64,000 nucleotides of DNA from Bacteroidia bacterium (GTDB taxonomy: Bacteria; Bacteroidota; Bacteroidia; AKYH767-A; OLB10): the NCBI GenBank assembly GCA_036274495.1, contig DASUFP010000039.1, positions 11,303 to 75,302 of the forward strand. Direction: 5' to 3'. Of the stretch, positions 8,199 through 49,775 are shown piece by piece. Numbering within the stretch: the first letter of the stretch is position 1; each line of letters begins with the position of its first letter. The notes beneath the pieces were generated by a model. It was not told where the DNA came from and did no database searches. It worked only from the letters and a program-made list of their open reading frames with translations. The translations under genes were made by a program, and so were the position numbers.

Positions 8199-8215
8199 GA
8201 GGTCGCGAGCAGATT
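8199..8215. repeat. Distal att core: exact 17-bp direct repeat of the 3' end of tRNA-Cys (gaggtcgcgagcagatt)
   Basis: Identical to 49704-49720, which corresponds to the T-loop, 3' acceptor strand, discriminator and first C of the tRNA. Confidence 0.7.
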
Positions 8216-19450: not shown

Positions 19451-19453
19451 AAA

Positions 19454-19649
19454 ATGGGTGCCCGATGGATTTTCTCTTATGGATGAACACAGCCTTTCTT
19501 TCAAAAAAAAGAAAAACTTTAAGCATGTAATGAAACTGTTCTTCCAGGTTTTCAACGCCAAAGTGCGAGCGCAGAATCCACGTAGGAACATTACAAATAA
19601 CCATCAGCAATCGTGATGTAGAATCAAAATCTCTTATTCGGGCACCCAT
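19454..19649 (-). ncRNA. msr-msd: Retron msr-msd non-coding RNA (candidate) bounded by 12-bp a1/a2 inverted repeats
   Basis: The inverted repeat atgggtgcccga (19454-19465) and tcgggcacccat (19638-19649) flanks ~170 nt immediately upstream of the RT start, as in known retrons. Confidence 0.5.
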
Positions 19650-30391: not shown

Positions 30392-31544
30392 CGTGATTTG
30401 GTTTGACGACCAATTTGACACATTAAATATCATACGAGAAGAAGCCCATTTAGCTGGCATTTCACTTGTTGGATTTTCTGACGCTCAGTCTGGTTTGCAT
30501 GAATTAGAGAAAAATTCACATTTGTATGATGCAGCCTTAGTCGATGGGAATTTCTTCATTAAACCTGGATTAAATTCTGACCAAGTTAGTGATGAAGCTC
30601 TTGACATTGTAGCTAAAGCTTTTCTTAGGCTTGAAACAAAAAAAATTATCCCATGGTTTATTCTTTCTGGTCAAGCCAATTTTACAAAAGGTGGAAACAA
30701 GTATGCTGATGTATATAAAAATGGAGAAGTTTTTGACAAAATAAATGAAAGTTCTCGTCAGGAATTATGGAATAAAATAAAAGAGGCAGCAAACCATCAA
30801 CCTGACACTCAACTTCGGCACAAATATCGTATGATTTTTGAGTTGTGCGATGAGAATTATCTGGGTATACATATGTCTGAAACATTGATGGGATTGATTC
30901 ATTTGCTTAAAGATGATTCAGAAGTGGAGCAAGGACTCCAATCTTGGAATACAATCCGGAAAGTAATTGAAAGATGTTTCATTGTACTTAACCGAATTGG
31001 CTTAATACCAGATGAGATAAATCGAACTTCTGGAAGTATAAATGGGTCAGGCTTGTTTTTGGCGGGCAAGCATTCCGATTTTCGATTGAAAAAAGAAATA
31101 GCTCCACCTGTAATTAATTTTATGATTCATAATTTGTTAGAACTTACACAAGACGGCTCTCATTCAAAAGAAGAATTAAAGCTTAAAGTAGATTTATTTG
31201 TAAAAAATCAACCAACCGGTTTTCTATTTAAAAGTAGCATTTATCAACTTTTGGAGATTCTAATTTGGCTTAAGAGCATTATTGACACTTATCCATCAAT
31301 AGATGACAACAAAAACCTTATTGAACTTCGAAGCGTCTCAAATACTGCCATTTATGAAGGCGAAATTGAACAAGACGAGCGTAAAAATTTTCACTGTGGA
31401 GAATATTTGTTAAACTTTCGTTTAGTAAATGAAAGTTACAAGGTTGGTGATATTATCAGAATATTGGATTTCACCTCTAACAACAATTCAAGAACAAATA
31501 TTTTTTATTCAAAATTTGCAACTAAATTTATAAAGATAACTTAA
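30375..31544 (+). CDS. Receiver (REC) domain protein with ~250-aa C-terminal domain of unknown function (candidate output/effector). It overlaps the kinase-fusion gene by 17 bp
   Basis: N-terminus VIWFDDQ...YDAALVDGNF...IPWFILSGQ...TKGGNK fits the REC Asp-Asp/Asp/Ser-Thr/Lys pattern. The C-terminal part is unassigned. Confidence 0.5.
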   Translation: MMQKYNVIWFDDQFDTLNIIREEAHLAGISLVGFSDAQSGLHELEKNSHLYDAALVDGNFFIKPGLNSDQVSDEALDIVAKAFLRLETKKIIPWFILSGQANFTKGGNKYADVYKNGEVFDKINESSRQELWNKIKEAANHQPDTQLRHKYRMIFELCDENYLGIHMSETLMGLIHLLKDDSEVEQGLQSWNTIRKVIERCFIVLNRIGLIPDEINRTSGSINGSGLFLAGKHSDFRLKKEIAPPVINFMIHNLLELTQDGSHSKEELKLKVDLFVKNQPTGFLFKSSIYQLLEILIWLKSIIDTYPSIDDNKNLIELRSVSNTAIYEGEIEQDERKNFHCGEYLLNFRLVNESYKVGDIIRILDFTSNNNSRTNIFYSKFATKFIKIT

Positions 31545-31551
31545 TAATCTC

Positions 31552-33027
31552 ATGACCCAAAAACAACTCGAAGACTACCTGTGGGGCGCAGCCAACATCT
31601 TGCGTGGAATGATTGATGCTGCCGATTTCAAGCAGTATATTTTTCCTTTGCTGTTTTTTAAACGAATCAGTGATTTGTGGGATGAGGAATTTGAAATTGC
31701 CAAAGTGGAGAGCGGTGGCGACTTAAAATACGCTGAGTTTGCCGAAAATCATCGGTTCCAGATTCCGAAAGGATGTCATTGGAACGATATCCGAAAAAAG
31801 ACGGTGGATGTAGGAGCCGCTTTGCAAAAGGCATTAACCGGTATTGAGAAGGCTAATTTTGAAATGCTACATGATGTATTTGGTGATGCCCAATGGACGA
31901 ACAAACGCCGGATGAGTGATGAAAAAATGCTCGACCTAATAGAACATTTCAGTAAAATGAATTTGAGTGTGAGTAATGTGCCCCACGACTTGATGGGGGA
32001 AGGGTATGAATACCTCATCAAAAAATTTGCGGATGACAGCGGGCACACGGCTGCGGAGTTTTATACCAATCGCACTGTGGTAAAACTCATGACCCAGATT
32101 ACAGACCCCAAAAGCAAAGAGAGTATATACGACCCGACATGTGGAAGTGGCGGAATTTTACTAAGTGCTGCCCTACATTTGAAAGAGCAAGGTAAAGAAT
32201 ACCGAACATTGAAGCTGTACGGACAGGAGTTGAACCTGATAACCTCTGCTATTGCCCGTATTAATATGTTTATGCATAACGTGGATGAGTTTCTTATTGT
32301 CCAAGGCGATACCCTTGACAGCCCACAAATTCTTGAAAACGATGAGTTGAAGCAATTTGATGTTATTATGGCCAATCCTCCTTATAGTGTAAAGAAATGG
32401 AGCCAGAAAAAGTGGATGAATGACCCTTTTGGACGTAATATCTGGGGTACGCCTCCCCAGGGTTGTGCCGATTATGCCTTCCAGCAGCACATTATGAAAA
32501 GCCTGAACCCTGTTACAGGACGTAGTGTGGTATTGTGGCCTCACGGAGTATTATTCCGGGATGCGGAAAATGAAATCCGTAAAAAAATGATTGAGGAAGA
32601 TTATGTGGATGCGGTTATCGGGCTTGGGAAAAATCTGTTTTACAACAGTAGTATGGAAAGTTGTTTGCTGGTGTGTAGGATGAAAAAGCCAAAGGAGCGA
32701 AAAGGAAAGATTATTTTCATTGATGCCAAAGATGAACTTAGAGTTGAGCGGACTAATGCCTGGTTGGAGCCACAGCACATTAAGAAGATAAGCGATGCAT
32801 ATTGGAAGTTTAAAGATATTGACGGTTTTGCCAAAGTAATCTCTAATAAGGAAGTGTTGGTTAACAATGGTAATCTCAGCTTACCACTCTACGTGAAGCA
32901 ATCTACTAATGCATCTGAACACAATACTCAAGAGTTAATTTCCGAAATTAAAGATAGACAGAAACAAATCAATAAGTCTATTGATAATTTGGTTGCTCAT
33001 CTTAAACAAATTGGAATAGAATCATGA
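31552..33027 (+). CDS. hsdM: Type I restriction-modification system methyltransferase subunit HsdM
   Basis: HsdM N-terminal domain LEDYLWGAANILRG. Motif I YDPTCGSGGIL. NPPY motif MANPPYSV. Confidence 0.9.
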   Translation: MTQKQLEDYLWGAANILRGMIDAADFKQYIFPLLFFKRISDLWDEEFEIAKVESGGDLKYAEFAENHRFQIPKGCHWNDIRKKTVDVGAALQKALTGIEKANFEMLHDVFGDAQWTNKRRMSDEKMLDLIEHFSKMNLSVSNVPHDLMGEGYEYLIKKFADDSGHTAAEFYTNRTVVKLMTQITDPKSKESIYDPTCGSGGILLSAALHLKEQGKEYRTLKLYGQELNLITSAIARINMFMHNVDEFLIVQGDTLDSPQILENDELKQFDVIMANPPYSVKKWSQKKWMNDPFGRNIWGTPPQGCADYAFQQHIMKSLNPVTGRSVVLWPHGVLFRDAENEIRKKMIEEDYVDAVIGLGKNLFYNSSMESCLLVCRMKKPKERKGKIIFIDAKDELRVERTNAWLEPQHIKKISDAYWKFKDIDGFAKVISNKEVLVNNGNLSLPLYVKQSTNASEHNTQELISEIKDRQKQINKSIDNLVAHLKQIGIES

Positions 33028-34184
33028 AGTTGAATAAGCATAAGTGGGGTTCGGTTAAGCTTTCCGAGGTTTGCGAAAAAACTCAAAATGTTGATATACG
33101 CAAGCAATCAGGAATATTCAGTTATATTGATATTGGGTCTATTAATTCTGATGCAAAAAGAGTATCTGAAGTCCAAATGCTGAATTGGTCAGAAGCTTCT
33201 TCAAGAGCAAGACAAATAATTCATAAAGGAGATACTCTTTTTTCAACTGTACGAGTCAATCTCGAAAGAATTGCGTTTATTGATAAGGAAATTCCTAATG
33301 CGATTGCCTCTACTGGATTTACTGTTATAAGAGCCAATAAAAAGGCTTTGCCAGAATTCTTATTTTACTCAACAAGTTCTCCGGAATTTATAGAAAGACT
33401 TTGCAAATTGCAAAAGGGGACTGCTTATCCTGCGGTTTCTGATAGAATAGTCTTTAATGAAGTTATTCCCCTCCCCTCACTCGCCGAACAAAAGCAAATA
33501 GCCGAATTATTTCAAAGCATTGAAGCTGCCATGGAACAGGTGGAGGGGCAGGAGAGGAATTTGAGGACACTTCAAAAATCCTTAGTCAATGGCTTAGTTG
33601 GCAAAAAACCAGTCTTTGGAGATTTATTGAACGCAAAAAACTGCACCCCTACAACCTTTGGTGAAATAGCCGAGTGCGACAAAAAGTACCCTGAGCATGA
33701 ATTAGAGGCGGAACGGTTTGTTGGTTTGGAGAATATTGAGGCTGATAACTTTCAACTGCTTGGTTATGGATTAGTTGCCAATGGAACCACTTTTTCCAAA
33801 CGGTTTTGCACTGGAGATGTATTGTTTGGGAAGCGAAGAGCATACTTAAAAAAAGTTGCAGTCGCAGATTTTAATGGTATATGTTCAGGTGACATCCTGG
33901 TAATAAGAGCTAAGGCTAAGAAAATGCTGCAGGGGCTTTTGCCATATTATATTTCAGCAGATGCATTCATTCAACATGCCGTCAGTACTTCTGCAGGCTC
34001 TTTATCTCCACGGACCAAATGGAAAGATTTAGCTGACTTCGAGATTTCAATACCTGATATAAAAACACAGGAGAAAATACTGGCAATCCTTAGTCAGTTT
34101 GATAATACTATTAATCAGCTCAAACAGCAGAAGGTGACATTGAAAAATTTGAAGCAAAAGTTACTGAATGAGATTTTGGGGTAA
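33024..34184 (+). CDS. hsdS: Type I restriction-modification system specificity subunit HsdS (two target recognition domains)
   Basis: Two TRDs separated by the conserved PLPSLAEQKQIAELF region, with C-terminal LKQKLLNEIL. The gene overlaps the end of hsdM. Confidence 0.85.
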   Translation: MKLNKHKWGSVKLSEVCEKTQNVDIRKQSGIFSYIDIGSINSDAKRVSEVQMLNWSEASSRARQIIHKGDTLFSTVRVNLERIAFIDKEIPNAIASTGFTVIRANKKALPEFLFYSTSSPEFIERLCKLQKGTAYPAVSDRIVFNEVIPLPSLAEQKQIAELFQSIEAAMEQVEGQERNLRTLQKSLVNGLVGKKPVFGDLLNAKNCTPTTFGEIAECDKKYPEHELEAERFVGLENIEADNFQLLGYGLVANGTTFSKRFCTGDVLFGKRRAYLKKVAVADFNGICSGDILVIRAKAKKMLQGLLPYYISADAFIQHAVSTSAGSLSPRTKWKDLADFEISIPDIKTQEKILAILSQFDNTINQLKQQKVTLKNLKQKLLNEILG

Positions 34185-34327: not shown

Positions 34328-36559
34328 ATGAAAATGAACAAAAAACCTTCACCTGAACCTGAAACAAAGGTTGCAAGAATCATTGGGTTATTCAAGACTT
34401 CTCCAACAGAAGCTTTTCAATCATTACTCGAAGAAGGAATTTTCTTTAACCACAAGCAAAGTGTCAATTTTTGGCAGAGTTATTCTGCAATTTACTCTGA
34501 TGAACTTGTTGTATCATTTCCTGAATCAACAGAATTATTCAACAAGTTGGTTTGGCTCAAACTGTTCCATGATTTAAATCAATTCTATAATTCGGAAAAG
34601 GATAAAAACCTAAAAGAGTTATATGCTCTCAATCCGAATCAAAAAGATTTTGTTCAAGCCCTATTTCTTTGTCTTGAACTTGGAACCTATAGTTATCCAT
34701 ACTCGACCTTTCCGATTTATTCTGGAGATTCCCTCACGGCAATTAAAACTATCCTTAAGGAAGTAAAACATCGCTTAAATCCCCAGAAACCATCTCCATA
34801 CTCCCCTGCACTTGCTCAAACGTGCAACACTCTGTTAAAAATCCAGATAGATTTGGATTCGCTCGAAGAATTCGTTGATGCATATGTATGGGCAGGACTT
34901 GAAATGGAGAAACTGAAAGATTTGCAAGGATTTTCATTATCCATTTCAGAACGAAATAAAAAAGAGCTCAATCCACTTGTATTAAATCAAATAAAGACGA
35001 TAATAAAGCGAACATATAAACAAACAGAATCACATGCTGGGATTTCGACAGAAAAACACTTTATAAAGAACGACCCTAAATGGAAGTCCAATGAAGGTAT
35101 ATTAGGGGCAATTGCCTTACATGGGGCAACTATCCATTCAAAAACACCTGGAATAACAGCGATAAATGCTGAGCCTGGAGAGTTTCCGGAATTAGACGTA
35201 ACCAATCCGCATTCTATTAATTCAATTGCGAAGAAAGCCATTGAAACATTTTTGACTCACAATTTTCATTTACAGCTAAGACAAGCAATCTCCAGTGTTT
35301 ATCAACCTAATGATGAGATAGATATCAAGACAATTCAGATTGAAGTCAAACCAAACATGTTTTTTTCACTTTTCGAGTTGATAGCTGCAATGTCAAGTCT
35401 GATTTCATGGTCGGATGCATATAGGTATTTCGCAGATTTTCCAGACAGTGGAAGCATCAAGTCTATCAAGAGGAAACTTTACCATCAGCTATCAAGCCAG
35501 GATGCAGATTTATCTGAGTTTGAAAAACACGAAATAATTAACTGGAAAATCGTGAGCGAATTTCAATTAATCAATTCAGCTCCAGAAAATATTTTCTATG
35601 CCTTATTGAGCTCAGATAGTATTATCAATAAATTTCGGGATGTTGAAGAATTAAGGGACAAGTCTCCGATTGAACTTGAATCTATTTTACATTTATTTTC
35701 AGATTTGAATATTAAAACGCCTTTTAATCCAATTTATACTGTTAATAGTGATTACTATTTTGCTAATCACAGTTGTCTTTTCAATATGAATCGCATGTTA
35801 TATGACAATTACATTTCAGATGAATTGTTCAATTCAAAAAAGCCCACGGGAAAGCAAAGAAAACATGTAGGGGATTTACAGAAAAATCGGGAATTACAAT
35901 TTGGCAATTCGATTTCAGATGTTTTTAAAGAAATAACTCCATATAGTAAAGCAAATATAAAATTTGATGGAACCAATCCTAAATATAATTTCGGTGATTT
36001 AAAGGGTGAACTGGATACGGCTGTTTATTTCGAGTCAGAAAACATATTGTTTGTAATTGAGGTGAAGTTAAGTAATGTTGCTCCAAGGAGCGAAAAAAGA
36101 AAATACACTTGGGTATACAATAATATTGCAAATAAACATAAAGTAAATTCGGGAGTAAATCAAATCAAGAAGGATTTAAAGTTATTAAGTATTGGTGTCG
36201 GGTTACAATTAATTTCAGAGGAGATTAACGCTCCGAGTACAATTACAAATCCCCGTGTTTATCCAATAATCATTACTGATAATTTCTTTGCTGACCATGA
36301 AGAATTCATATACAATGAGAGAGGAGATAAGGTTCGTTGCATCAGTTATTTTGAACTTAAACATCTCATTTTAAACAAACCGATTCACGAACAGCAAAAA
36401 TTGCCTGAATTAAAAGGAGAATCAATCGCATCACAATTAATAAAGGCAATTGATAACAATTTATTTTGGAAATTCATTACTGATGAGGCTGCAAACTATT
36501 CATACACCAAGTCCCTCACTGCCATCAATGATGAATTCAAAATAACTATGAAGATATAG
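34328..36559 (+). CDS. Large hypothetical protein (743 aa) with C-terminal PD-(D/E)xK-like nuclease motif, inserted between hsdS and hsdR
   Basis: GELDTAVYFESENILFVIEVKLS fits the Asp...Glu-x-Lys restriction-endonuclease-fold motif. No other recognizable domain. Confidence 0.4.
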   Translation: MKMNKKPSPEPETKVARIIGLFKTSPTEAFQSLLEEGIFFNHKQSVNFWQSYSAIYSDELVVSFPESTELFNKLVWLKLFHDLNQFYNSEKDKNLKELYALNPNQKDFVQALFLCLELGTYSYPYSTFPIYSGDSLTAIKTILKEVKHRLNPQKPSPYSPALAQTCNTLLKIQIDLDSLEEFVDAYVWAGLEMEKLKDLQGFSLSISERNKKELNPLVLNQIKTIIKRTYKQTESHAGISTEKHFIKNDPKWKSNEGILGAIALHGATIHSKTPGITAINAEPGEFPELDVTNPHSINSIAKKAIETFLTHNFHLQLRQAISSVYQPNDEIDIKTIQIEVKPNMFFSLFELIAAMSSLISWSDAYRYFADFPDSGSIKSIKRKLYHQLSSQDADLSEFEKHEIINWKIVSEFQLINSAPENIFYALLSSDSIINKFRDVEELRDKSPIELESILHLFSDLNIKTPFNPIYTVNSDYYFANHSCLFNMNRMLYDNYISDELFNSKKPTGKQRKHVGDLQKNRELQFGNSISDVFKEITPYSKANIKFDGTNPKYNFGDLKGELDTAVYFESENILFVIEVKLSNVAPRSEKRKYTWVYNNIANKHKVNSGVNQIKKDLKLLSIGVGLQLISEEINAPSTITNPRVYPIIITDNFFADHEEFIYNERGDKVRCISYFELKHLILNKPIHEQQKLPELKGESIASQLIKAIDNNLFWKFITDEAANYSYTKSLTAINDEFKITMKI

Positions 36560-36606: not shown

Positions 36607-37476
36607 ATGCAAAATTCTTCATTACCCAAAATCCCGTCCGTTAACTTTCACTTATGGGAACCCTGCAACATGCGTTGCGGATTTTGTTTTGCCACCTTCC
36701 AGGATGTAAAACAAACTGTTTTACCAAAAGGGCACCTTCCAAAAGATGATGCCCTGAGAATTGTAAAACTTCTGGCAGATGCCGGTTTTCAGAAAATCAC
36801 CTTTGCCGGTGGAGAGCCTACACTCTGCCCCTGGCTCACTGAGCTTATCGTTGAAGCAAAAAATGCCGGGATGACTACCATGATAGTTACAAATGGTACC
36901 GGCCTTAGCAACTCTTTCCTAAAACAGAACCGGGAATATCTGGACTGGATAGCCATCAGTATTGACAGCATCTCTCCTGAGACCAACATGGCTTCGGGCA
37001 GAGCTATCTCTGGTAACAGACCGTTAAGTTTAGCGCAATATCAGTTACTGATTGCACAGATTCATCAGTTTGGATACAACCTGAAAATTAATACCGTTAT
37101 AAACCGGTTAAATTATTTGGAAGACCTGAATGAATTTATCCGGTTTGCCAATCCTAAACGATGGAAGGTTTTGCAGGCACTGCCAATAGTTGGACAGAAC
37201 GACCGGAAAATTGATGCATTCAAAATTTCACAGCAGGAGTTCAACTTTTTCCTTCATACCCACCGGAAGTTGCATCACTTGTTAGTGCCTGAAACCAACT
37301 CTCAGATTTTAGGGTCATACGTAATGGTGGACCCAGCCGGGAGGTTTTTCGATAATTTCGAAGAAAAGCACCGGTACAGTATGTCGATTTTGGAGGTTGG
37401 GGCTCAACAAGCTTTGACGCAGGTGCATTATGATGCCTTAAAATTCCAAGACAGAGGTGGAATATATGATTGGTAG
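36607..37476 (+). CDS. Prokaryotic viperin homolog (pVip), a radical SAM antiviral enzyme
   Basis: CNMRCGFCF radical SAM cluster motif. Extended identity to human viperin is visible by eye: VNFHLWEPCNMRCGFCFATF vs NYHFTRQCNYKCGFCFHTA; YLDWIAISIDS vs YLDILAISCDS; LKINTVINRLN...NPKRWKVLQALPIVGQN vs FKINSVINRFN...NPVRWKVFQCLLIEGEN; LVPETNSQILGSYVMVD vs LVPESNQKMKDSYLILD. It ends in a C-terminal Trp like viperin. Confidence 0.85.
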   Translation: MQNSSLPKIPSVNFHLWEPCNMRCGFCFATFQDVKQTVLPKGHLPKDDALRIVKLLADAGFQKITFAGGEPTLCPWLTELIVEAKNAGMTTMIVTNGTGLSNSFLKQNREYLDWIAISIDSISPETNMASGRAISGNRPLSLAQYQLLIAQIHQFGYNLKINTVINRLNYLEDLNEFIRFANPKRWKVLQALPIVGQNDRKIDAFKISQQEFNFFLHTHRKLHHLLVPETNSQILGSYVMVDPAGRFFDNFEEKHRYSMSILEVGAQQALTQVHYDALKFQDRGGIYDW

Positions 37477-37794: not shown

Positions 37795-38877
37795 ATGAAT
37801 AGAACAGACCCCTTTAATCAGCTTCCGGATTTACCTCCCAAAACGGACCTTGAAAGCCCGGAATTTCTCAAAGCCAGTATCAAAGCCAGCAGGTTATTAG
37901 CTGAATTGAAAGGGTATTGTCAAACACTCCCAAACCCCAGACTACTGATAAATACCATAGTGCTACAGGAAAGTAAAGATAGCTCCGCAATTGAAAATAT
38001 TGTTACCACCCAGGATGAACTGTACAGAGCAGTTGCTTCTATTGACGACGGAGATGGATTTGGTGCAGCAACAAAGGAAGTGTTATGGTATCGTGAAGCA
38101 CTGTACCATGGATTGGATTTAATGAGAAGCCGGGGGTTGACCACAAATACCCTCATTGCCATCATGCGGAAATTGAAAAATACAGATGAGGGTATTCGAA
38201 AAAACACAGGCACCAAGCTTGCTAATCCAACCACAAAAGAAATAATCTATACGCCACCCGAAGGAGAAACGCTCTTAAGAGAAAAACTCACTTCACTTGA
38301 AAAATTCATGCATAATGACAAGGATGATATTGATGTATTGATAAAAATGGCACTCATTCATTATCAATTTGAGGCAATTCACCCATTTTCCGATGGCAAT
38401 GGTAGAACAGGTAGAATTTTAAATGTGTTGTATCTGGTACAAAAGGAGCTATTAAATATCCCGGTATTATATATGAGTTCTTATATCATCCAAAGAAAAG
38501 GTGATTACTATCGTTTACTCCGTGAAGTAACAGAAAATCAAAATTGGAGAGGTTGGATATTGTTTATGCTTCAAGCTGTATCCGAGACGGCTGAAATCAC
38601 GCTTGCAAAGATTGATGAAATCCAGAAGTTGAAAAAGGAAATGACCGGAACGGTAAAAGATGTGCTAAAAAATTCATACAACAGCGAATTAGTCGATTTA
38701 ATGTTTAGCTTTCCGTATTTGAAAATTAAAATTTTGGAAAAACACGATATTGCCCAGAGACAAACTGCATCAGTGTACTTGCAAAAGCTCGCAAATGTTG
38801 GTATTCTCCAGCCTATGAAAGTCGGAAAGGAAATGTATTATATCAATCACAGACTCATGAAACTTTTTAGCAACTAA
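37795..38877 (+). CDS. Fic family protein (AMPylation/Fido domain with C-terminal winged helix)
   Basis: Canonical Fic motif HPFSDGNGRTGR. Confidence 0.85.
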   Translation: MNRTDPFNQLPDLPPKTDLESPEFLKASIKASRLLAELKGYCQTLPNPRLLINTIVLQESKDSSAIENIVTTQDELYRAVASIDDGDGFGAATKEVLWYREALYHGLDLMRSRGLTTNTLIAIMRKLKNTDEGIRKNTGTKLANPTTKEIIYTPPEGETLLREKLTSLEKFMHNDKDDIDVLIKMALIHYQFEAIHPFSDGNGRTGRILNVLYLVQKELLNIPVLYMSSYIIQRKGDYYRLLREVTENQNWRGWILFMLQAVSETAEITLAKIDEIQKLKKEMTGTVKDVLKNSYNSELVDLMFSFPYLKIKILEKHDIAQRQTASVYLQKLANVGILQPMKVGKEMYYINHRLMKLFSN

Positions 38878-38882
38878 TTTTT

Positions 38883-41861
38883 ATGTCATTTAATGAACTT
38901 AATGCGGTAGAACATTTTATCATTCACCAGTTAACCGGTGTAAATCTGAATGATGTTCAAAAGAGTCGTGCGGAAGATGGTCCGGTATCGTATGCAAACG
39001 AACCGAAGTGGAGATATGTTCAATCTGAACTGCTAAAACGGGATATATCTGATGTACTGCTGGAATCCGAATTGAAGGATGCTCTTTACAGATTAAATCC
39101 ACAGTTGAATGGTAGCTCTGAAAAGGCAGATGAAATAATTCATAAACTCAGAGCGATTCTAATAACAGTTAACAATGTAGGACTTGTAAGAGCTAACGAA
39201 GAGTTTTCAAAATGGCTCCGTAATGAAATGACGTTGCCTCTTGGTAAGAATCATGAACACATCACCATCAGGTTAATTGACTTTGAGCAGGTAGAAAACA
39301 ACAGTTATATTCTAACTAACCAATTAAACTTTCGGGCACGGGAAACTAAAATTCCTGACATCGTAATGTATGTCAATGGTATTCCGCTTGTAATTGGCGA
39401 AGCGAAGACACCGGTACGTCCTGCCGTGACCTGGTTTGATGGTGCCCATGACATTCATCAAATTTATGAGAATGCAATACCGCAACTATTCGTCCCAAAT
39501 ATCTTTTCATTTGCAACGGAAGGCAAAGAGCTGTTCATTGGTGGTGTCCGAACTCCACTTGAATTTTGGGCTCCCTGGCGAATTGAAGTCGAAAAAGACG
39601 AACTAAGTCATTTTGCCGGTCTGAACGATGTGGCGAAACAGCTAACACACTTGCTGAAACCCTCAACTGTTCTGGATATTCTCCAGTTCTACACAGTTTA
39701 TGCAACCAGCAGCAAGAAAAAGAAAATCAAAGTGGTGTGCAGGTATCAGCAATATGAGGGCGCAAATGGTATTGTGGAGCGTGTGAAAGAGGGGAAAATC
39801 AAGAAAGGACTCATTTGGCACTTCCAGGGTTCCGGTAAATCGTTGCTGATGTTGTTTGCAGCTCAGAAATTGCGAAAACAGCAAGACTTGCATAATCCTA
39901 CGGTCTTGATAGTGGTTGACCGAACCGACCTGGATACTCAGATAGCAGCAACTTTTAATACTGCCGAGGTTCCCAACATGGTTACAACCGACAACATAAA
40001 GCAACTGCACAAATTACTCGAACAAGATACCCGCAAAATCATTATCACCATGGTTCACAAGTTCAAGGAAGCGTATGCTGATATGAACACACGGGAGAAC
40101 ATCATTGTGATGGTGGATGAAGCTCATCGAACGCAAGAAGGTGATTTGGGTAGAAAAATGCGAAGCGCACTTCCAAATGCTTTTCTTTTCGGACTAACCG
40201 GTACTCCCATCAATAAAGCAGATAAAAACACTTTCTGGGCTTTTGGAGCTGAGCAGGATTCGGGAGGATATATGAGCCGGTATACTTTCCAGGACAGCAT
40301 CCGTGATAATGCTACCCTACCATTACATTTTGAACCCCGATTACCAAATTATCATATCGACAAAGAAAGTCTCGATGTTGCTTTCAGGGAGATGGCAAAT
40401 GACCTAAGTGAAGAAGACCGGAATAAACTTAGCCAGAAGGCTGCAAATATGTCGGTCTTTCTAAAATCTCCTGAGCGAGTAAAAACCATTGTTGCCGATA
40501 TCGCAGAACATTTTAAAGCACACGTTGAGCCGGAAGGTTTAAAGGCGATGATAGTTACTCCGGACAGGTATGCTTGCATCCAGTACAAGGAAGAACTGGA
40601 TAAACTCATGGGTGCTGAATGCAGTGCGGTTGTTATCAGTACATCCGCAAACGATGATTATGAATTCAAACAGAAATGGGGACTTGATAAAGATGCACAG
40701 GAAAAGGTGGTGGAGAAATTTAATGATTCTGATTCGCCATTGAAGTTTCTCATTGTGACAGCCAAACTTCTAACAGGGTTCGATTCTCCCATTCTGCAAA
40801 CCATGTACCTGGATAAATCATTAAAAGACCATACTCTCCTACAAGCGATTTGCAGAACAAACAGACTATTTCCCAATAAAACATTTGGTAGAATCGTAGA
40901 TTATTTCGGTGTGTTTGACGATACAGCCTCTGCCCTGGCGTTTGACGAAGCCAGTGTAAAGGCAGTTATCACTAATTTACAAGAGTTGCGTGACAAATTA
41001 CCTGAGTGGATTGACAAATGCCTTTCTCATTTCTCTGGAGTTGATAGGACTCTTGGCGGATTTGAAGGATTACAAAAAGCTCAGGATTGTATTAACACAA
41101 ATGAGAAGCGTGATGCATTCGCCAAAGACTACAGCAGCTTGTGCAAATTATGGGAAGCCCTTTCACCTGACCCGGTATTAAATCAATATCAGAAAGATTA
41201 CAAATGGCTGTCGCAGGTATATACAAGTGTAAAACCTGCTTCAGATGATAATGGCCGTTTGCTCTGGCATGCACTTGGTGCACAAACAACAGCTCTAATT
41301 CACGAACACATTCATGTTACAGGCATCAACAAAGAGATGGAAGAGTTGGTGCTGGATGCCGAAGTGATTGATGACTTAATGAATAAAAAAGACCCAAACA
41401 AGGCAAAGAAAGTGATGATTATATTAATTGGCCGTTTGAAGAAACACGGCAATAATCCAATCTTTAAAAAGCTAAGTGAACGACTGGAAATCATACGTAG
41501 CAAAGCAGAACAAGGCCTCATTAATTCAGTTGAGTTTATCAAGGAACTGTGTCAAATTGCGAAGGAGACACTGCAGGCGGAAAAAGGCATTGAAACTAAA
41601 GTCGAGCAGAAATCTGGCAAAGCTGCACTAACTGAATTGTTTTTGGAATTAAAAACCGACACCACTCCAGCAATCGTAGAACGAATCGTTAATGACATTG
41701 ACGAAATCGTTCGAATTGTCCGTTTTGACGGATGGCAGGATTCTACGGTAGGCGAGCGGGAAGTGAAAAAAGAACTCCGGAAGGTGCTTTGGACAAAATA
41801 TCAAATAAAAGATGAGGAGTTGTTTAATAGGGCGTATGATTATATAAGGGAATATTATTAA
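38883..41861 (+). CDS. hsdR: Type I restriction-modification system restriction subunit HsdR
   Basis: SF2 helicase motif I FQGSGKS and DEAH box VMVDEAHRTQ. Length 992 aa. It directly follows the hsdM/hsdS cluster. Confidence 0.9.
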   Translation: MSFNELNAVEHFIIHQLTGVNLNDVQKSRAEDGPVSYANEPKWRYVQSELLKRDISDVLLESELKDALYRLNPQLNGSSEKADEIIHKLRAILITVNNVGLVRANEEFSKWLRNEMTLPLGKNHEHITIRLIDFEQVENNSYILTNQLNFRARETKIPDIVMYVNGIPLVIGEAKTPVRPAVTWFDGAHDIHQIYENAIPQLFVPNIFSFATEGKELFIGGVRTPLEFWAPWRIEVEKDELSHFAGLNDVAKQLTHLLKPSTVLDILQFYTVYATSSKKKKIKVVCRYQQYEGANGIVERVKEGKIKKGLIWHFQGSGKSLLMLFAAQKLRKQQDLHNPTVLIVVDRTDLDTQIAATFNTAEVPNMVTTDNIKQLHKLLEQDTRKIIITMVHKFKEAYADMNTRENIIVMVDEAHRTQEGDLGRKMRSALPNAFLFGLTGTPINKADKNTFWAFGAEQDSGGYMSRYTFQDSIRDNATLPLHFEPRLPNYHIDKESLDVAFREMANDLSEEDRNKLSQKAANMSVFLKSPERVKTIVADIAEHFKAHVEPEGLKAMIVTPDRYACIQYKEELDKLMGAECSAVVISTSANDDYEFKQKWGLDKDAQEKVVEKFNDSDSPLKFLIVTAKLLTGFDSPILQTMYLDKSLKDHTLLQAICRTNRLFPNKTFGRIVDYFGVFDDTASALAFDEASVKAVITNLQELRDKLPEWIDKCLSHFSGVDRTLGGFEGLQKAQDCINTNEKRDAFAKDYSSLCKLWEALSPDPVLNQYQKDYKWLSQVYTSVKPASDDNGRLLWHALGAQTTALIHEHIHVTGINKEMEELVLDAEVIDDLMNKKDPNKAKKVMIILIGRLKKHGNNPIFKKLSERLEIIRSKAEQGLINSVEFIKELCQIAKETLQAEKGIETKVEQKSGKAALTELFLELKTDTTPAIVERIVNDIDEIVRIVRFDGWQDSTVGEREVKKELRKVLWTKYQIKDEELFNRAYDYIREYY

Positions 41862-41872: not shown

Positions 41873-42676
41873 ATGGATTATAATATCAAGGAGCATGGGG
41901 ATTGGCTCGAAAAGCAGGCAGCAGACTATATTAATACAAATATTCCCGCATACGAACTGATTTGGAAATCGTTAATTGGTCACAAGGGAAATGGGCAAAT
42001 GGCGACAATGCAAAATCTCAATGATTCAGCAGCACGAACAAGAGTTGATTTTGCTCAACATCATTATACAATTCTTGAATCCCTTTATTTTATGCAATTG
42101 ATGGCAGATGATGAAAATAAAATCAAAACAATAATTTCATTTGAGCAATATAGAATAGTCATAAATCAAATAATGTCTTTTCAGGCATATTCGGGAAGGC
42201 TCAGAGATAATATAGGAGAGTGCTTTTTTTTAATAGCCCCCAAGGAAGAAGCCGAAAAAGCCATAAAAAAACTGGAAGAGTTTTACAACGAACGTCATAT
42301 TTATATTCACGGTAGAAAGGTTCCATTTTCAATTGATGCCGACAATATTTTTAAAATTGCTTTGGTAAAACGTAGTACTATTTCTTCTACAGGGTTTGGA
42401 AAAGATATGCCATGGGAATCCATTTCAGACAAAGAAATGAATTACTTAACTGATACATTCAATAAATCGCTCACTGAACTAAAACCATTAGTACAAGGAT
42501 TGCTGAGTAATCTTTACCAATTTGTAAATAAGTTTATACATAAAAGTGGCGGAAAGTTAATCTTTGGGTATTCTGCAAATTTGGAATCCCCAATTTCCTC
42601 ATCAATTAATCCGGCTCCTTCAGCATCGGCATATTTTCCGGATATAAATTCATCTGGCGGAAACTATTTGTCATAA
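41873..42676 (+). CDS. Hypothetical protein
   Basis: 267-aa ORF immediately downstream of hsdR. Confidence 0.35.
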   Translation: MDYNIKEHGDWLEKQAADYINTNIPAYELIWKSLIGHKGNGQMATMQNLNDSAARTRVDFAQHHYTILESLYFMQLMADDENKIKTIISFEQYRIVINQIMSFQAYSGRLRDNIGECFFLIAPKEEAEKAIKKLEEFYNERHIYIHGRKVPFSIDADNIFKIALVKRSTISSTGFGKDMPWESISDKEMNYLTDTFNKSLTELKPLVQGLLSNLYQFVNKFIHKSGGKLIFGYSANLESPISSSINPAPSASAYFPDINSSGGNYLS

Positions 42677-42711: not shown

Positions 42712-44202
42712 TTGAAAGTATTACTGGATACAAATATTATTATTCATAGAGAAGCAAGTCGGGTAATCAACCAGGATATTGGAATCTTATTTAATTGGCT
42801 GGATAGACTACATTATATAAAATGCGTTCATCCACTTTCTGCAGACGAATTAGGTCGACATCAGGATATAAAGACCGTGCAAACTATGCATGCAAAGTTG
42901 CAGAATTACCAAATTTTGCAAACACCAGCACCCCTACATGAAAAAGTAAAACAAATAAGTTCTGGAATTGATGTTTCACCAAATGACATTGAAGATACAA
43001 AGCTTTTAAATGAGGTGTTTTGTGAAAGAGTAGATTTTCTAATTTCAGAAGATAAGAAAATTCACGCCAAAGCTGCTTTACTTGGAATTTCACCGAAAGT
43101 TTTTAGAATAGATTCCTTTTTAGAAAAGGTCACTGCAGAAAATCCCGATTTTGTAAATTATCAGGTCCTTTCTGTAAGAAGGGATTATTTTGGAAACATA
43201 AATCTTAATGATGAATTCTTTGATAGCTTTAGAGGTGACTATGTAGGATTTGACAAATGGTATAACGGGAAAGCTGGTGACAACGAAAAGGCATATGTTT
43301 GTTATGAAGAAGGCACTTTGAAAGCGTTTTTATTCCTCAAAGTAGAAAATGAAAATGAAAACTATTCTGAATTAAATCCGGGTTTTCCCAAAAAGAAAAG
43401 ATTAAAAATCGGCACCTTCAAAGTTGTAAGCAATGGATTACGTTTAGGCGAAAGGTTTCTAAAAATTATATTCGACAATGCCCGGCAATATAAAGTTGAT
43501 GAAATATATGTCACCATTTTTGATAAGCGGCCCGAATTGCTAAGCCTCATTAATCTACTTGAGAAATTTGGTTTTAGGTATCATGGTGAGAAAACATCTC
43601 AATCAGGAATTGAAAAAGTATATGTTCGTGATTTTTCTAAAATTACTGATGACCAAAACCCCAAAAATACATTTCCCTGGCTTTCCAAAACAAGTGATGT
43701 ATATATTATACCAATACGTCCTGAATATCATACCGATTTATTACCTGATTCAATGTTAAGAACTGAATCAGCCATCAATTTTATAGAAAATGAACCTTAT
43801 CGGAACGCTATTAGCAAAGTTTATGTGTCACATTCACAAACCCGTAATTTGAGAACAGGAGATATAATTGTTTTTTACCGTAGCGGAGGTATACATAAGG
43901 GTGTAGCAACTACAATTGGAATAGTTGAGAATGTGATTATTCCATCTACACTTGAAGAACTTATCAGTGTGTGCCGAAAACGGACCGTATTAACTGAATC
44001 CGAATTGGCAGAATACTGGAACAGGTTTTCAAACTTAAAACCATTCGTGATTAACTTCTTATATGCATTCTCATTTAAGAAACGGATGAATTTAAAAGGT
44101 ATGTTAGATAATGGTATACTTGCTAACATGGATATGGTGAAAACTATTACCAAAATGGAAAGAGAATCCTTAGTTAATCTAATAATTTCGTGCGGAATAT
44201 GA
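42712..44202 (+). CDS. Multidomain protein: N-terminal PIN-like nuclease domain + GNAT acetyltransferase-like domain + C-terminal ASCH/PUA-like domain
   Basis: MKVLLDTNIII...ISED gives the PIN acidic residues. RLKIGTFKVVSNGLRLGERFLK fits the GNAT R-x-x-G-x-G/A acetyl-CoA loop. The C-terminal VYIIPIRPEYHTDLLPD...GDIIVFYRSGG...IGIVENV resembles the ASCH fold. Confidence 0.45.
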   Translation: MKVLLDTNIIIHREASRVINQDIGILFNWLDRLHYIKCVHPLSADELGRHQDIKTVQTMHAKLQNYQILQTPAPLHEKVKQISSGIDVSPNDIEDTKLLNEVFCERVDFLISEDKKIHAKAALLGISPKVFRIDSFLEKVTAENPDFVNYQVLSVRRDYFGNINLNDEFFDSFRGDYVGFDKWYNGKAGDNEKAYVCYEEGTLKAFLFLKVENENENYSELNPGFPKKKRLKIGTFKVVSNGLRLGERFLKIIFDNARQYKVDEIYVTIFDKRPELLSLINLLEKFGFRYHGEKTSQSGIEKVYVRDFSKITDDQNPKNTFPWLSKTSDVYIIPIRPEYHTDLLPDSMLRTESAINFIENEPYRNAISKVYVSHSQTRNLRTGDIIVFYRSGGIHKGVATTIGIVENVIIPSTLEELISVCRKRTVLTESELAEYWNRFSNLKPFVINFLYAFSFKKRMNLKGMLDNGILANMDMVKTITKMERESLVNLIISCGI

Positions 44203-44570
44203 GAGTTGTTTTATCTATTAAACCGGAATTTGCAGACAAAATATTCGATGGCTCAAAGAAATTTGAGTTTCGAAGGAGCATCTTCAAAAATCCTGATGTA
44301 AGTCGAATCGTTGTGTATGCCTCTTCCCCGGTTCAAAAAATAATTGGAGAGTTTGAGGTTGAACAAATTTTAGTACATGACTTAAAAACTCTTTGGAATA
44401 TAACAAAGGATTATTCAGGTATTTCAAAGAATTATTTTTATGAATATTTTAATGATAAGGAGAAGGGATTCGCTATTAAAATTAAAAACACTAAGAAATA
44501 TAAAAAGCCGAAGTGTATACGAAAGGATTTCAACCTATTTCCCCCACAGTCCTTCTTGTATTTAATTTAA
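44190..44570 (+). CDS. ASCH domain protein
   Basis: VVLSIKPEFADKIFDGSKKFEFRR is the classic ASCH N-terminal signature. It overlaps the preceding gene by 13 bp. Confidence 0.7.
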   Translation: MRNMRVVLSIKPEFADKIFDGSKKFEFRRSIFKNPDVSRIVVYASSPVQKIIGEFEVEQILVHDLKTLWNITKDYSGISKNYFYEYFNDKEKGFAIKIKNTKKYKKPKCIRKDFNLFPPQSFLYLI

Positions 44571-44950: not shown

Positions 44951-45811
44951 ATGGAAGATAAGAAAACTCTCACGTTACGTGAATTTAACCTTTGCGGTGA
45001 AATTTCCATTCATAATTTCCGTACAGAAGCTGTCGGACTAACAGGCGACATAACAGATTTGTTAAGAATATACCTTGGACTTGATACCGATGAAGAAATT
45101 GAAAAGCTAATTTACAATTACCCTGTGGCCCTTGGCGAGGATGAAGAGGACGAAATTCACTATTTTAATTCAAAAACTTGGGTTGAAAAAACAATTTATA
45201 GGGCAATTGAAAAACTTTTTAAGCAGACCGGGTATGAGGTAGATTTCCATCCAGCGTTAGTATTGACACTTTTTTTGAAAAACAGATATAACTTTATTAA
45301 CATACCGGTTGATTTATTTGAAAAGGTTCAGTCGCCATATGAATTATATCAGTTTTTTAAAACTACGGATGATTCAACTTTGTCCAGTTTGAAAATAAAA
45401 TTAAGTACTTCGGTCAACACAAATATTTTAACATTGGATATTAAGTCCTATCAATTCATGAAACGGGCTATTGAATATTATTCAAATTCCCCAGATGGAG
45501 AACATTACATTGATGATATAAAATCGGATTACGCAATCATGTCAGGTATCATCGAAAAAATGCAGCAAGTAAATCAAAATAATATAAAACAAGCTAAGAA
45601 CGACTTTCGACATTACTTCATTCCAATCGTGGATAACTATTATCATAAAACAATTACTAATGCAAGACTAAGGTCACTTGTTATTGGGGAATTGCTGACA
45701 ATGATTATACCAAAGAGCATGGTTTTTAAAGGGAATTCCAGTAATATTGAAGCTAAGGCGGACTTCTATTATCGAAATATTCGGAAATATTTTCCGAAAA
45801 CAAAAAAATAG
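44951..45811 (+). CDS. Hypothetical protein
   Basis: 286-aa ORF. Confidence 0.35.
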   Translation: MEDKKTLTLREFNLCGEISIHNFRTEAVGLTGDITDLLRIYLGLDTDEEIEKLIYNYPVALGEDEEDEIHYFNSKTWVEKTIYRAIEKLFKQTGYEVDFHPALVLTLFLKNRYNFINIPVDLFEKVQSPYELYQFFKTTDDSTLSSLKIKLSTSVNTNILTLDIKSYQFMKRAIEYYSNSPDGEHYIDDIKSDYAIMSGIIEKMQQVNQNNIKQAKNDFRHYFIPIVDNYYHKTITNARLRSLVIGELLTMIIPKSMVFKGNSSNIEAKADFYYRNIRKYFPKTKK

Positions 45812-46587: not shown

Positions 46588-47922
46588 ATGTCTTCTACAG
46601 TAATAACGGAAAAGTCAGCGTATCCGATGGTGACCTATACACCATCCTTTATGACCATAAACGAGCGAAAATGCAGGCTGACAGTACGTTTTCATCTGAA
46701 AATCACCAAAGCCAATCATGGTGAATTCCCACTTTATCTCCGCATCATATATAAAAGAATTAAAGTTGAACTCAGCACAGGACTATTAATTAGTCCGGAT
46801 GAATGGAACTTCAAAACCGGGGAACTGCGCTACAAACACCAGCATACAGAGGTACATCAAAAACTAATTGCATTGGAATCGCAAGTGTACCAGATTTCAA
46901 AGCATCGTGAATTAAAAGGTCTGAAAGTCAGCTCATCAATAATAAAACAAATAATAAGAAACAAAATGAATATAGACACACCGATAGGGCATGGGAGTTT
47001 ACTTATAGCCTACCTTAAATCGTATATCGAATTTATCAAGGGAATCAATAAAGAGTATACTCCTGGAACTGTACAACACTATGTAACTCTGGTAGGCCAC
47101 CTTGAAAATTTCATAAAGTCATTGGGATTAATCGACATCCCGATACATGTGGTTGACACTCGGTTTATTCAGGGGTTCGATGACTTCTTAATGACCTGGA
47201 TAAATCCAAAACTGGGTCGTGCTATGAATCGGAATACCGCAAACCGCAATCATTCAAAATTGAACCCTTTACTAACACGAGCAGTGTTGGAGAAGTTAAT
47301 TCATTCGAACCCGTATGCCGGTTTCAAACTGAAACGAGCGAAGCCAAAGTCTGATTACTTGGTGGACCACGAAATTCAACTTCTTATAAATAAGCGACTC
47401 GATAACAATTCGCTGGAAACCGTCCGTCTGTATCTTTTGATGTCCATATTCATGGGTGGGGTTCGATTCAGCGACCTTAAAAATGTTAAGTCTTACAATA
47501 TCATCGAGGAGGATGGATTCTACTTTTTGCATATTCACCGACAGGAGAAAACGGATGCCAGCGTGCTCACCCCATTGCTTCCATGTGCAGTTGAAATATT
47601 TAGTAAGTACCAATGGTGCCAAGATGAAGAGGGTTACATATTGCCGAGACTCACTCAACAGAAATTGAATGAATATTTGAAAACATTGGCTGATTTATGT
47701 GGTGTCCAAAAGAGGATGACTCACAAAATAGCCAGGCATACATTCGCCACAACCATATGCAGTCAGCACGGTGTACCACGTCATTTAATTGCTGCCTGGC
47801 TGGGCCATTATTCTCAAATCCGAACCACCGACATTTATGCTCGTGTGACAAAGCAAGAATCAATGATTTGGGTCAAAAAACTTTGGGAAATCTATAACAA
47901 GCCTGAATACATTCTTAAGTAA
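46588..47922 (+). CDS. int: Tyrosine-type site-specific integrase (Bacteroidetes phage-integrase family with N-terminal arm-binding domain)
   Basis: Catalytic region ARHTFATTICSQHGVPRHLIAAWLGHYSQIRTTDIYARV carries the Arg/His-x-x-Arg/Tyr motifs. Full length 444 aa with N-terminal DNA-binding domain. Confidence 0.9.
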   Translation: MSSTVITEKSAYPMVTYTPSFMTINERKCRLTVRFHLKITKANHGEFPLYLRIIYKRIKVELSTGLLISPDEWNFKTGELRYKHQHTEVHQKLIALESQVYQISKHRELKGLKVSSSIIKQIIRNKMNIDTPIGHGSLLIAYLKSYIEFIKGINKEYTPGTVQHYVTLVGHLENFIKSLGLIDIPIHVVDTRFIQGFDDFLMTWINPKLGRAMNRNTANRNHSKLNPLLTRAVLEKLIHSNPYAGFKLKRAKPKSDYLVDHEIQLLINKRLDNNSLETVRLYLLMSIFMGGVRFSDLKNVKSYNIIEEDGFYFLHIHRQEKTDASVLTPLLPCAVEIFSKYQWCQDEEGYILPRLTQQKLNEYLKTLADLCGVQKRMTHKIARHTFATTICSQHGVPRHLIAAWLGHYSQIRTTDIYARVTKQESMIWVKKLWEIYNKPEYILK

Positions 47923-49702: not shown

Positions 49703-49775
49703 GGAGGTCGCGAGCAGATTCGAACTGCTGTACAAGGTTTTGCAGACCTCTACCTAGCCTCTCGGTCACGCGACC
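49703..49775 (-). tRNA. tRNA-Cys (anticodon GCA)
   Basis: Minus-strand sequence GGTCGCGTGACCGAGAGGCTAGGTAGAGGTCTGCAAAACCTTGTACAGCAGTTCGAATCTGCTCGCGACCTCC. It has a 7-bp acceptor stem, a T-arm AGCAG-TTCGAAT-CTGCT, and an anticodon loop CTGCAAA with U33 and GCA at positions 34-36. The variable loop is short. Confidence 0.85.

Follow-up and report, generated by a model that had tools for sequence, protein, structure and literature searches.

A PIN-GNAT-ASCH fusion gene and its coupled ASCH partner on a tRNA-Cys island of a Bacteroidia bacterium: a candidate toxin/antidote-type module of the PDC-M11 family

Two overlapping genes lie on the + strand of the stretch of Bacteroidia DNA analyzed here (64,000 nucleotides; the window). 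Gene A (42712..44202, +) is an open reading frame with a TTG start and encodes a 496-aa fusion of PIN, GNAT-fold, and ASCH-like segments, and gene B (44199..44570, +) encodes a ZmASCH-type ASCH protein of 123 aa when read from its ATG. An earlier inspection of the letters alone (the sequence-only reading) had proposed two overlapping reading frames, a PIN-GNAT-ASCH fusion and a standalone ASCH partner, and both the frames (42712..44202 and 44190..44570) and the architecture were borne out. The same reading gave B 126 aa and a 13-bp overlap with A. That longest open reading frame does exist (44190..44570, +, GTG start), but the start of gene B is most likely the ATG at 44199, which gives a 123-aa product and a 4-bp overlap in which the stop of A and the start of B share the letters ATGA (44199..44202, +). 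The NCBI model of gene B (P0121) is likewise 123 aa long. In 74 of 79 related loci B follows A in the same orientation, the remaining five having too little downstream sequence for a judgment, and the 4-bp overlap recurs in 42 of the 74. The ATGA overlap indicates that A and B are translationally coupled. We conclude that both genes are real, as protein A has more than 5143 database homologues and protein B more than 2291. Protein A is 100% identical to an NCBI "PIN domain-containing protein" from a Bacteroidia metagenome-assembled genome. A scan for sigma-70 promoters and terminators around the pair, made with a model that lacks Bacteroidota promoters, was uninformative and returned no terminator on the + strand.

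The pair belongs, with near certainty, to the published "(PIN)-GNAT-EVE + ASCH" two-gene family, which PADLOC lists as candidate PDC-M11. The PDC-M11A model (PDLC04422) matched protein A at an E value of 2.7e-205, with residues 1-491 aligned to profile positions 1-489 of 501, and the PDC-M11B model (PDLC04425) matched the whole of protein B at an E value of 5e-52. PADLOC PDC systems are candidates by definition. The likeness takes in the three-domain large protein, the downstream ASCH partner, and the link to type I restriction-modification and defense islands. A computational description of the architecture was given by Iyer et al. 2013 (cited through PMC7641849 and PMC5499597). It is also the architecture of families PIN_15 and PIN_17 of Matelska et al. 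2017 (PMC5499597), and Bell, Wolf, and Koonin 2020 (PMC7641849) reported the same PIN-GNAT-EVE + ASCH architecture and partner and stated that all of the modules were still uncharacterized. Our search of the literature on PDC-M11, GNAT-EVE, GevT/GevA, and ASCH together with antitoxin found no experimental study.

Homologues of the pair are annotated as the GevT toxin and the GevA antitoxin in GenBank entry PV340567.1 (Escherichia phage PhiR47_2), and the study behind these labels was not found in the literature search. GevT, which is encoded by a lambdoid E. coli prophage, is 36% identical to residues 154-467 of protein A, that is, to the GNAT domain and barrel (E value of 7e-58), and GevA is 49% identical to protein B (E value of 2e-46). 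The gevT and gevA genes overlap and have the same order as A and B. GevT, however, is a 357-aa protein without a PIN domain, of which the 496-aa protein A is a PIN-bearing relative. Moreover, gevTA is prophage borne and directly follows cI, whereas the A-B pair resides on a tRNA-integrated island. The phage pair, in the PIN-less form, is present in 275 of 5426 complete E. coli genomes (approximately 5%). The family as a whole comprises 1890 clusters at 50% identity from bacteria, archaea, prophages, and plasmids, and homologues of 54-78% identity are scattered patchily over many bacterial and archaeal phyla. Fusions of A to B are rare. One natural fusion (P0244) is matched on its C terminus by the B-family model at an E value of 4e-34, and in longer forms, of about 620 aa, an ASCH domain is found at the N terminus.

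The N terminus of protein A (approximately residues 1-145; 42712..43146, +) is predicted to be a PIN nuclease domain, an assignment made by profile alignment and conserved acidic residues. The PIN-like signature noticed earlier, LLDTNIII (residues 4-11) and ISED (residues 111-114), proved sound: protein A aligned to the whole PIN_3 profile (1-115 of 115), and D6, D95, D114, and the S112-x-D114 motif are all present. The PIN_3 score of protein A is below threshold (15.4 bits against a cutoff of 27), and 26 of 28 close homologues match the profile, with a best E value of 1.2e-7. Among 92 diverse full-length members of the A family, D6, D95, and D114 are each retained in 77, a Thr or Ser at position 112 is retained in all, and D6 is lost to Gly in 12. 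The PIN region is weak in the AF2 model of protein A (pLDDT of 35-69 over the first 70 residues). PIN-less GNAT-PUA forms of about 350 aa are common and widespread in the family, and sequence comparison marks GNAT-PUA as the universal core.

Residues 155-310 or thereabouts (43174..43641, +) form a GNAT-fold domain, which is the best-conserved part of the A family, with a mean pairwise identity of 63%, the other domains having 56-60%. The sequence-only reading had recognized a GNAT-like acetyl-CoA loop, RLGERFLK, in an R-x-x-G-x-G/A context. The fold itself was upheld, as the beta4-alpha3-beta5-alpha4 core is present and the loop falls in the beta4-alpha3 loop N241-G-L-R-L-G-E-R248 (43432..43455, +), with strand at 230-238 and helix at 243-259. 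This loop occupies the place of GNAT motif A, yet its sequence is noncanonical. When the Naa50 motif A, R-G-I-G-I-G, was aligned to N241-G242-L243-R244-L245-G246, the last Gly alone was retained, and protein A does not carry the R/Q-x-x-G-x-G/A motif that binds the acetyl-CoA pyrophosphate. Among diverse members, more than 90% keep G242 and G246. The GNAT-like domain of these proteins was also found to be without a canonical motif A by Matelska et al. 2017, who judged it to be degenerate and probably inactive (PMC5499597).

Domain searches, which had been named as the check on both folds, recovered ASCH from Pfam in protein B but no Pfam acetyltransferase family at an E value of 1 or below in protein A or in any of 28 homologues. 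Protein A scored at an E value of 2.2e-23 against phrog_13728, an "acetyltransferase," and a diverse GNAT-only profile of the A family matched Naa50 at an E value of 1.7e-4. The diverse profile was required for a match to PDB sequences; a profile of close homologues was insufficient and gave chance hits alone. Eight polar residues of the domain are near invariant (K210, E212, K232, K237, E247, Y266, T268, and E301), and these line beta4, alpha3, and beta5, where the cofactor is located in GNAT enzymes. The C terminus (approximately residues 322-496; 43675..44199, +) was confirmed to be a PUA-like beta-barrel related to ASCH or EVE, without the GxKxxExR octapeptide, and it is likely a nucleic acid reader. 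BLASTP of this domain against protein B returned nothing (E value of 17), and the two are related in profile-profile comparison only.

Protein B, to judge from its conserved residues, looks like a catalytically competent ASCH protein. The ASCH assignment had been made before from sequence and is now secured by a score above the Pfam cutoff (24.8 versus 21.2 bits) and by a full-length match to ZmASCH at an E value of 4e-13. The ASCH octapeptide is G18-S-K20-K-F-E23-F-R25 (GxKxxExR; 44250..44273, +), and in 75 B sequences K20, E23, and R25 are conserved at 100% and G18 at 97%. Protein B also retains Y40 and S118, which correspond to the ZmASCH residues Y47 and S128 required for nucleic acid binding and cleavage. 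Lys53, used by ZmASCH in binding, is unconserved in B. The YqfB-type N4-acetylcytidine amidohydrolases share with B the ASCH fold and the octapeptide Lys, but B carries Glu23 where their GK[T/S]R octapeptide has Thr or Ser, and Glu23 places B with ZmASCH in the GKER subgroup. The Lys/Glu dyad of B is common to the Glu-type tRNA ac4C erasers TthASCH, EOLA1, and TRIP4, in which it is essential for removal of ac4C from tRNA (2026 preprint). Thus, a deacylase role for B is plausible, as B has the GxKxxExR dyad on which ac4C removal depends in other ASCH proteins. Mean pairwise identity is 59% for A and 57% for B, and such similar divergence is atypical of a fast-evolving antitoxin.

ZmASCH itself (ZMO0922 of Zymomonas mobilis; PDB 5GUQ and 5GUS) has been described as an Mg-dependent single-stranded RNA ribonuclease that binds both single-stranded RNA and single-stranded DNA. 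Free ac4C was not hydrolyzed by ZmASCH and ac4C was not lowered in vivo; activity was seen on purified tRNA in vitro only. Whether ZmASCH belongs to such an operon was examined: the PDC-M11B models match it, but its upstream neighbor in Z. mobilis is an unrelated secreted protein of 375 aa. ZmASCH is therefore an orphan with no A-type neighbor, unlike B, and B-type proteins can thus work alone.

The island that carries the pair spans approximately 41.5 kb and is inserted at tRNA-Cys. Its integrase end is about 5 kb away from the pair, and HsdR precedes the pair by 850 bp, a single small gene intervening. The island also encodes viperin, SoFic, GmrSD, a reverse transcriptase, and RtcR-CARF. An N6-methylase or HsdR-like gene was found within 10 kb in approximately 9 of 79 related loci, and we conclude that linkage to type I restriction-modification is recurrent but not obligatory in this clade. 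The genes that flank the pair (267 aa, 41873-42676; 286 aa, 44951-45811) gave no match in Pfam, PADLOC, or PHROG, and 80 related loci contain no homologue of either. Both were therefore rejected as components of the system.

We favor, tentatively and at a little under even confidence, a toxin/antidote-like abortive defense in which A is a nucleic acid effector and B counteracts it. The GevT/GevA labels, the PADLOC PDC-M11 listing, and the location of the pair in a defense island argue for this interpretation, and they fit the toxin-antidote or defense pair near the island end that was first proposed from the letters alone. Published predictions had already put this idea forward (Iyer 2013, cited through PMC7641849 and PMC5499597). 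Against it stand the missing motif A and the lack of a Pfam GNAT match in A, the ribonuclease activity of ZmASCH and its failure on free ac4C and in vivo, the orphan state of ZmASCH, and the similar divergence of A and B. The barrel of A, having lost the catalytic octapeptide, would dock A on nucleic acid that is single stranded or modified, with RNA the most likely candidate. The GNAT-fold site would then transfer an acyl group to the target or bind an acyl-CoA-like ligand, and the intact PIN nuclease may add cleavage in the PIN-bearing subfamily. ATGA coupling would cause B to be made in a fixed ratio with A, and B would bind the same kind of ligand and counteract A, most plausibly by hydrolysis of the acyl mark and alternatively by binding of A. 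With A so countered, the cell would tolerate the module for as long as neither infection nor loss of the element upset the A/B balance, and the net effect would be a toxin/antidote-type abortive defense on a mobile island beside a type I restriction system. The analysis itself showed the domains and their conserved residues, the coupling, co-occurrence, and occasional fusion of A and B, and the setting on a mobile island; the toxicity of A, its acyl transfer and substrate, the way in which B acts as antidote, and protection against phage are inferred. A more specific version, in which immunity runs on a reversible nucleic acid acylation switch, seems improbable: there, the divergent GNAT domain, guided by the dead barrel, would write an N-acyl mark (e.g., N4-acetylcytidine) on RNA or DNA, the ASCH partner would erase it through the Lys/Glu dyad, and PIN would cleave marked or unmarked molecules, making a writer/reader/eraser/nuclease system.

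The position of the pair just after HsdR raises another explanation, that the barrels read modified bases, PIN cuts, GNAT is structural or regulatory, and the whole widens the range of type I restriction-modification as a type IV-like accessory. Recognition of modified bases is established for EVE and ASCH domains, PIN-GNAT-EVE is often linked to type I systems, and an ASCH-HsdS fusion occurs in Methanohalophilus (Bell et al., PMC7641849). Moreover, BapA, an ASCH-fold protein of a defense operon, removes glucose from glucosyl-5hmC phage DNA, and the noncanonical motif A also speaks for this explanation. Type I genes, however, are nearby in just the approximately 9 of 79 loci, the homologues are labeled toxin and antitoxin, and GNAT is the best-conserved domain of A. 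The nuclease cannot be the core activity, as PIN-less forms are common and Gly occupies PIN position 6 in 12 of 92 members, and we consider a restriction accessory unlikely. The same two observations weigh on the proposal that PIN is the only toxin, with a degenerate, inactive pseudo-GNAT as scaffold (Matelska et al. 2017) and an ASCH partner that binds or cleaves RNA as antitoxin or regulator. Protein A does have intact PIN acidic residues, a missing motif A, and no Pfam GNAT match, and ZmASCH does bind single-stranded RNA and DNA and cleave the RNA. Nonetheless, PIN-less GNAT-PUA proteins are widespread and are the ones that carry the toxin label, D6 is lost in 12 of 92 full-length members, and the near-invariant polar cluster at the GNAT cofactor site would be unusual for a dead domain. 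A toxin that acts through PIN alone is thus doubtful.

If GNAT is the active part, A might instead work in the classical manner of AtaT, TacT, and ItaT, acetylating the amino group of aminoacyl-tRNA to block translation, with ASCH reversing the damage as YqfB does. The pair shares the GNAT fold and two-gene toxin/antidote logic with these systems, its homologues bear toxin/antitoxin labels, ASCH proteins have amidohydrolase chemistry, and aminoacyl-tRNA is a possible target according to Bell et al. (PMC7641849). Both analogies had been drawn in the sequence-only reading, and neither fared well. Protein A has no sequence relation to the standard acetyltransferase families, lacks motif A, and has a PIN domain and a barrel in addition, and its partner is an unrelated ASCH protein encoded downstream rather than an RHH/DUF1778 protein encoded upstream; Pfam gave neither A nor B an RHH/DUF1778 match. 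Moreover, known ASCH enzymes act on N4-acylcytosine and not on N-alpha-acetyl-aminoacyl esters, and B belongs with the Glu-type ZmASCH, which did not attack free ac4C or show activity in vivo, rather than with the Thr-type YqfB. We therefore regard an AtaT/TacT-type mechanism as very unlikely. Lastly, PUA and ASCH domains are common in RNA modification enzymes and ZmASCH is a chromosomal orphan in a housekeeping neighborhood, such that A and B could be a housekeeping RNA modification pair with no role in conflict. The patchy distribution across phyla at 54-78% identity, the residence on mobile DNA (an integrated island, prophages, and plasmids), and the defense-island neighbors make that scarcely credible.

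Toxin/antidote-type abortive defense is the interpretation that we tentatively prefer. The locus adds no new kind of system and belongs to an already cataloged family. What it adds is a well-delimited example, with an intact PIN domain, tight coupling, adjacency to type I restriction-modification, and a tRNA-Cys island. The family is widespread and located in defense islands, yet our search turned up no published biochemical activity of its large protein. Should the GNAT domain acylate nucleic acid and ASCH reverse it, reversible base acetylation would for the first time be seen to underlie an immune system, and ASCH deacylases would gain a physiological role.

The large gene A and the small ASCH gene B directly downstream form a pair that PADLOC-DB lists as the candidate system PDC-M11. 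Matelska et al. 2017 (PMC5499597) described families PIN_15 and PIN_17 as PIN-GNAT-PUA proteins accompanied by a second PUA/ASCH gene, and called the GNAT domain degenerate. Bell, Wolf and Koonin 2020 reported that nearly all "(PIN)-GNAT-EVE" operons include an ASCH gene, that many also have one for an AAA_17 ATPase, and that they often adjoin type I restriction-modification (RM) genes; they described the modules as all experimentally uncharacterised and credited Iyer et al. 2013 with proposing nucleic-acid base acetylation. We consider it close to certain that the pair belongs to this PDC-M11 or (PIN)-GNAT-EVE plus ASCH family.

A occupies 42712-44202 (+; TTG start, 496 aa) and matches, at 100% identity, a Bacteroidia MAG protein that NCBI names "PIN domain-containing protein". 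More than 5143 relatives of A and 2291 of B are in the database, and thus both genes are real. The 126-aa ORF that the sequence-only reading assigned to B is present at 44190-44570 (+; GTG start) and shares 13 bp with A, but its start is likely ATG 44199. The NCBI model of B begins at that codon and has 123 aa, the ATG and the TGA stop of A share bases as ATGA, and a 4-bp overlap recurs in 42 of 74 related loci. Thus, the true overlap is most likely 4 bp. Such a start/stop overlap is the usual sign of translational coupling.

The architecture proposed from the sequence, PIN-GNAT-ASCH with a separate ASCH gene, is correct. The expected N-terminal acidic signature is present as D6, D95, and D114, together with an S/T112-x-D114 motif; each Asp is kept by 77 members of a diverse set of 92 full-length relatives, 12 of which have Gly at position 6. 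The whole Pfam PIN_3 profile aligned to residues 2-116 of A, at a score under the cut-off for A itself, and was matched by 26 of 28 close homologues (best E 1.2e-7). An AlphaFold2 model of A built from 28 homologues (mean pLDDT 78, pTM 0.72) was poor in the PIN region and good in the middle domain (83-93). The C-terminal barrel is remotely homologous to B (hhalign probability 81%, E 1.2e-5, 120 columns). The ASCH octapeptide (GxKxxExR) is absent from the barrel, where PDSxLxTE stands instead, followed by a poorly modelled insertion. Weak Pfam EVE matches from 13 of 28 homologues account for the published domain name "EVE".

The GNAT domain is the best conserved part of the A family, with mean pairwise identity of 63%; the corresponding values are 60% in PIN and 56% in the barrel. 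No Pfam acetyltransferase family matched any of 28 homologues at E<=1, and a profile from 28 diverse GNAT regions found Arabidopsis Naa50 in the PDB (E 1.7e-4) across beta4-alpha3-beta5-alpha4. The acetyl-CoA loop had been placed at RLGERFLK in an R-x-x-G-x-G/A context, and the alignment corrects this. Motif A of Naa50 (R-G-I-G-I-G) lies opposite N241-G242-L243-R244-L245-G246, so that only the last Gly of the canonical R/Q-x-x-G-x-G/A is retained, plus a conserved G242. A non-canonical motif A agrees with Matelska et al. 2017. Near-invariant in the family are Y177, W183, K210, E212, K232, K237, G242, G246, E247, Y266, T268, F288, and E301, many of which map in the model to beta4, alpha3, and beta5. 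These elements form the cofactor-holding region in GNAT enzymes.

B is a basic protein (pI 9.7) that passed the Pfam ASCH cut-off and matched the Zymomonas mobilis protein ZmASCH (PDB 5GUQ, 5GUS) over its full length (E 4e-13). ZmASCH (locus L081, 6001-6447), the one close relative of B that has been studied biochemically, falls within the PDC-M11B sequence family, the model of which scores it at E 6.3e-28; its gene is an orphan that adjoins argJ and a secreted-protein gene, with no A-type gene nearby. Across 75 sequences, octapeptide residues K20, E23, and R25 are 100% conserved and G18 97%, and Y40, Q117, and S118 are likewise invariant. Y40 and S118 are equivalent to ZmASCH Y47 and S128, mutants of which are weaker in nucleic-acid binding and RNA cleavage. 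The Lys/Glu dyad is required for tRNA ac4C removal in TthASCH, EOLA1, and TRIP4 (2026 preprint). ZmASCH removed ac4C only from purified tRNA; it left free ac4C intact and did not reduce ac4C levels in vivo. The analogy of B to YqfB does not hold, however, as B is of the Glu-type (GKER) subgroup and YqfB is Thr-type.

The family is wide, and its membership varies around a constant core. A single scan across species-representative genomes yielded 80 loci (54-78% identity), spread over Bacteroidota, Thermodesulfobacteriota, Chloroflexota, Planctomycetota, Verrucomicrobiota, Bacillota, and archaea, which clearly points to horizontal transfer; an exhaustive search gave 1890 clusters at 50% identity. 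Of 79 loci, 74 have B downstream of A and on its strand, and the sequence ends too early in the other 5. An AAA_17 kinase-like gene immediately precedes A in 25 of 79 loci (as in L001, 4783-5313) and a gene of ~311 aa separates A from B in 8 (as in L035, 11497-12432), neither of which is found in the window; a 349-aa gene lies upstream in 4 (as in L007, 8949-9998). A-type proteins are of ~500 aa (PIN-GNAT-barrel), ~350 aa (without PIN), or ~620 aa, the last with an additional, different ASCH domain fused N-terminally (P0257, P0264, P0272, P0283, P0345). Moreover, P0244 carries PIN-GNAT-barrel and then a B-type ASCH in one chain. Such fusions speak for an ASCH partner that works in physical association with A.

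PIN-less homologues of A also occur in 16 phage records. In the lambdoid Escherichia phage PhiR47_2 (L084, 2225-4411), the homologues of the pair are annotated as toxin GevT (36% identity to A residues 154-467, E 7e-58) and antitoxin GevA (49% identity to B, E 2e-46), encoded immediately downstream of cI on the same strand. In the lambda map, this slot is occupied by rexAB. No paper in the literature searched explains the Gev names. Of 5426 complete E. coli genomes, 275 carry the gevTA DNA, and we note that RefSeq there names gevT "hypothetical protein" and gevA "ASCH domain-containing protein".

In the window, the pair sits in an apparent integrated island. Seventeen bp of the tRNA-Cys 3' end (GAGGTCGCGAGCAGATT) occur as exact direct repeats at 8199-8215 and 49704-49720, a match with a chance expectation in the window of ~4e-4. 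The repeats resemble att sites and flank a low-GC stretch of ~41.5 kb; the tRNA-Cys gene lies at 49703-49775 (-) and a tyrosine integrase at 46588-47922. Just inside the left repeat is a 2079-aa protein with PKD, PGAP1-like esterase, and T9SS Por_Secre_tail sorting domains (8326-14565, -). Likely further defence genes are a GmrSD-like DUF262 gene (15586-17361), a 288-aa gene (17412-18278, -) adjoining a reverse transcriptase (18278-19591, -), and a DUF4407 gene (19680-20666, -). An RtcR-like CARF-AAA-HTH regulator follows (24991-26439, -; PADLOC RtcR_PspF2, E 1.7e-126). A DUF2130 gene (26499-27806), a gene that joins N6-methylase, specificity domain, and HATPase_c in 848 aa (27845-30391), and an overlapping 389-aa gene (30375-31544) may form a modification-based system of their own. 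The type I RM operon is interrupted: between HsdM (31552-33027) and HsdS (33024-34184) on one side and HsdR (38883-41861) on the other lie a 743-aa gene (34328-36559), a gene for a prokaryotic viperin (36607-37476), and SoFic (37795-38877). The pair follows HsdR after one 267-aa ORF (41873-42676, +; gaps of 11 bp to HsdR and 35 bp to A), and its placement at the "island end" was therefore roughly right. The 267-aa ORF, which may be an uncharacterised defence-island gene, had no Pfam, NCBIfam, PADLOC, or PHROG match and no homologue in the 80 related loci, and a 286-aa ORF downstream of the pair (44951-45811, +) likewise had no family match and no homologue in related loci.

How A and B act may be read in several ways. 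A could be a classical AtaT/TacT-type toxin, as the sequence-only reading supposed, but the absence of Pfam acetyltransferase matches and the non-canonical motif A place it outside that group. Alternatively, the GNAT domain could be dead, as its description as degenerate might suggest, and A a PIN-only toxin. The universal core, however, consists of GNAT domain, barrel, and ASCH partner, with PIN optional, and thus the core activity should reside in the conserved GNAT site and be directed by the barrel. The pair could instead be a modified-base reader attached to restriction, given its position behind HsdR; RM genes lie within 10 kb of the pair in only ~9 of 79 related loci. Finally, it could be a housekeeping RNA-modification pair, an unlikely reading given the patchy spread of the family across phyla.

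We favor a toxin/antidote or defence role, which we hold to be somewhat probable, while the acylation/deacylation chemistry is a tentative proposal that may well be wrong. The interpretation reached from the sequence repeats published predictions, and the locus adds one member to a known, still uncharacterised candidate family. In such a system, A would be an effector on nucleic acid by way of acyl transfer, to which the subfamily found here would add PIN cleavage, and a catalytically competent ASCH partner B would restrain it, for a net outcome that may be toxin/antidote-like in a defence setting.
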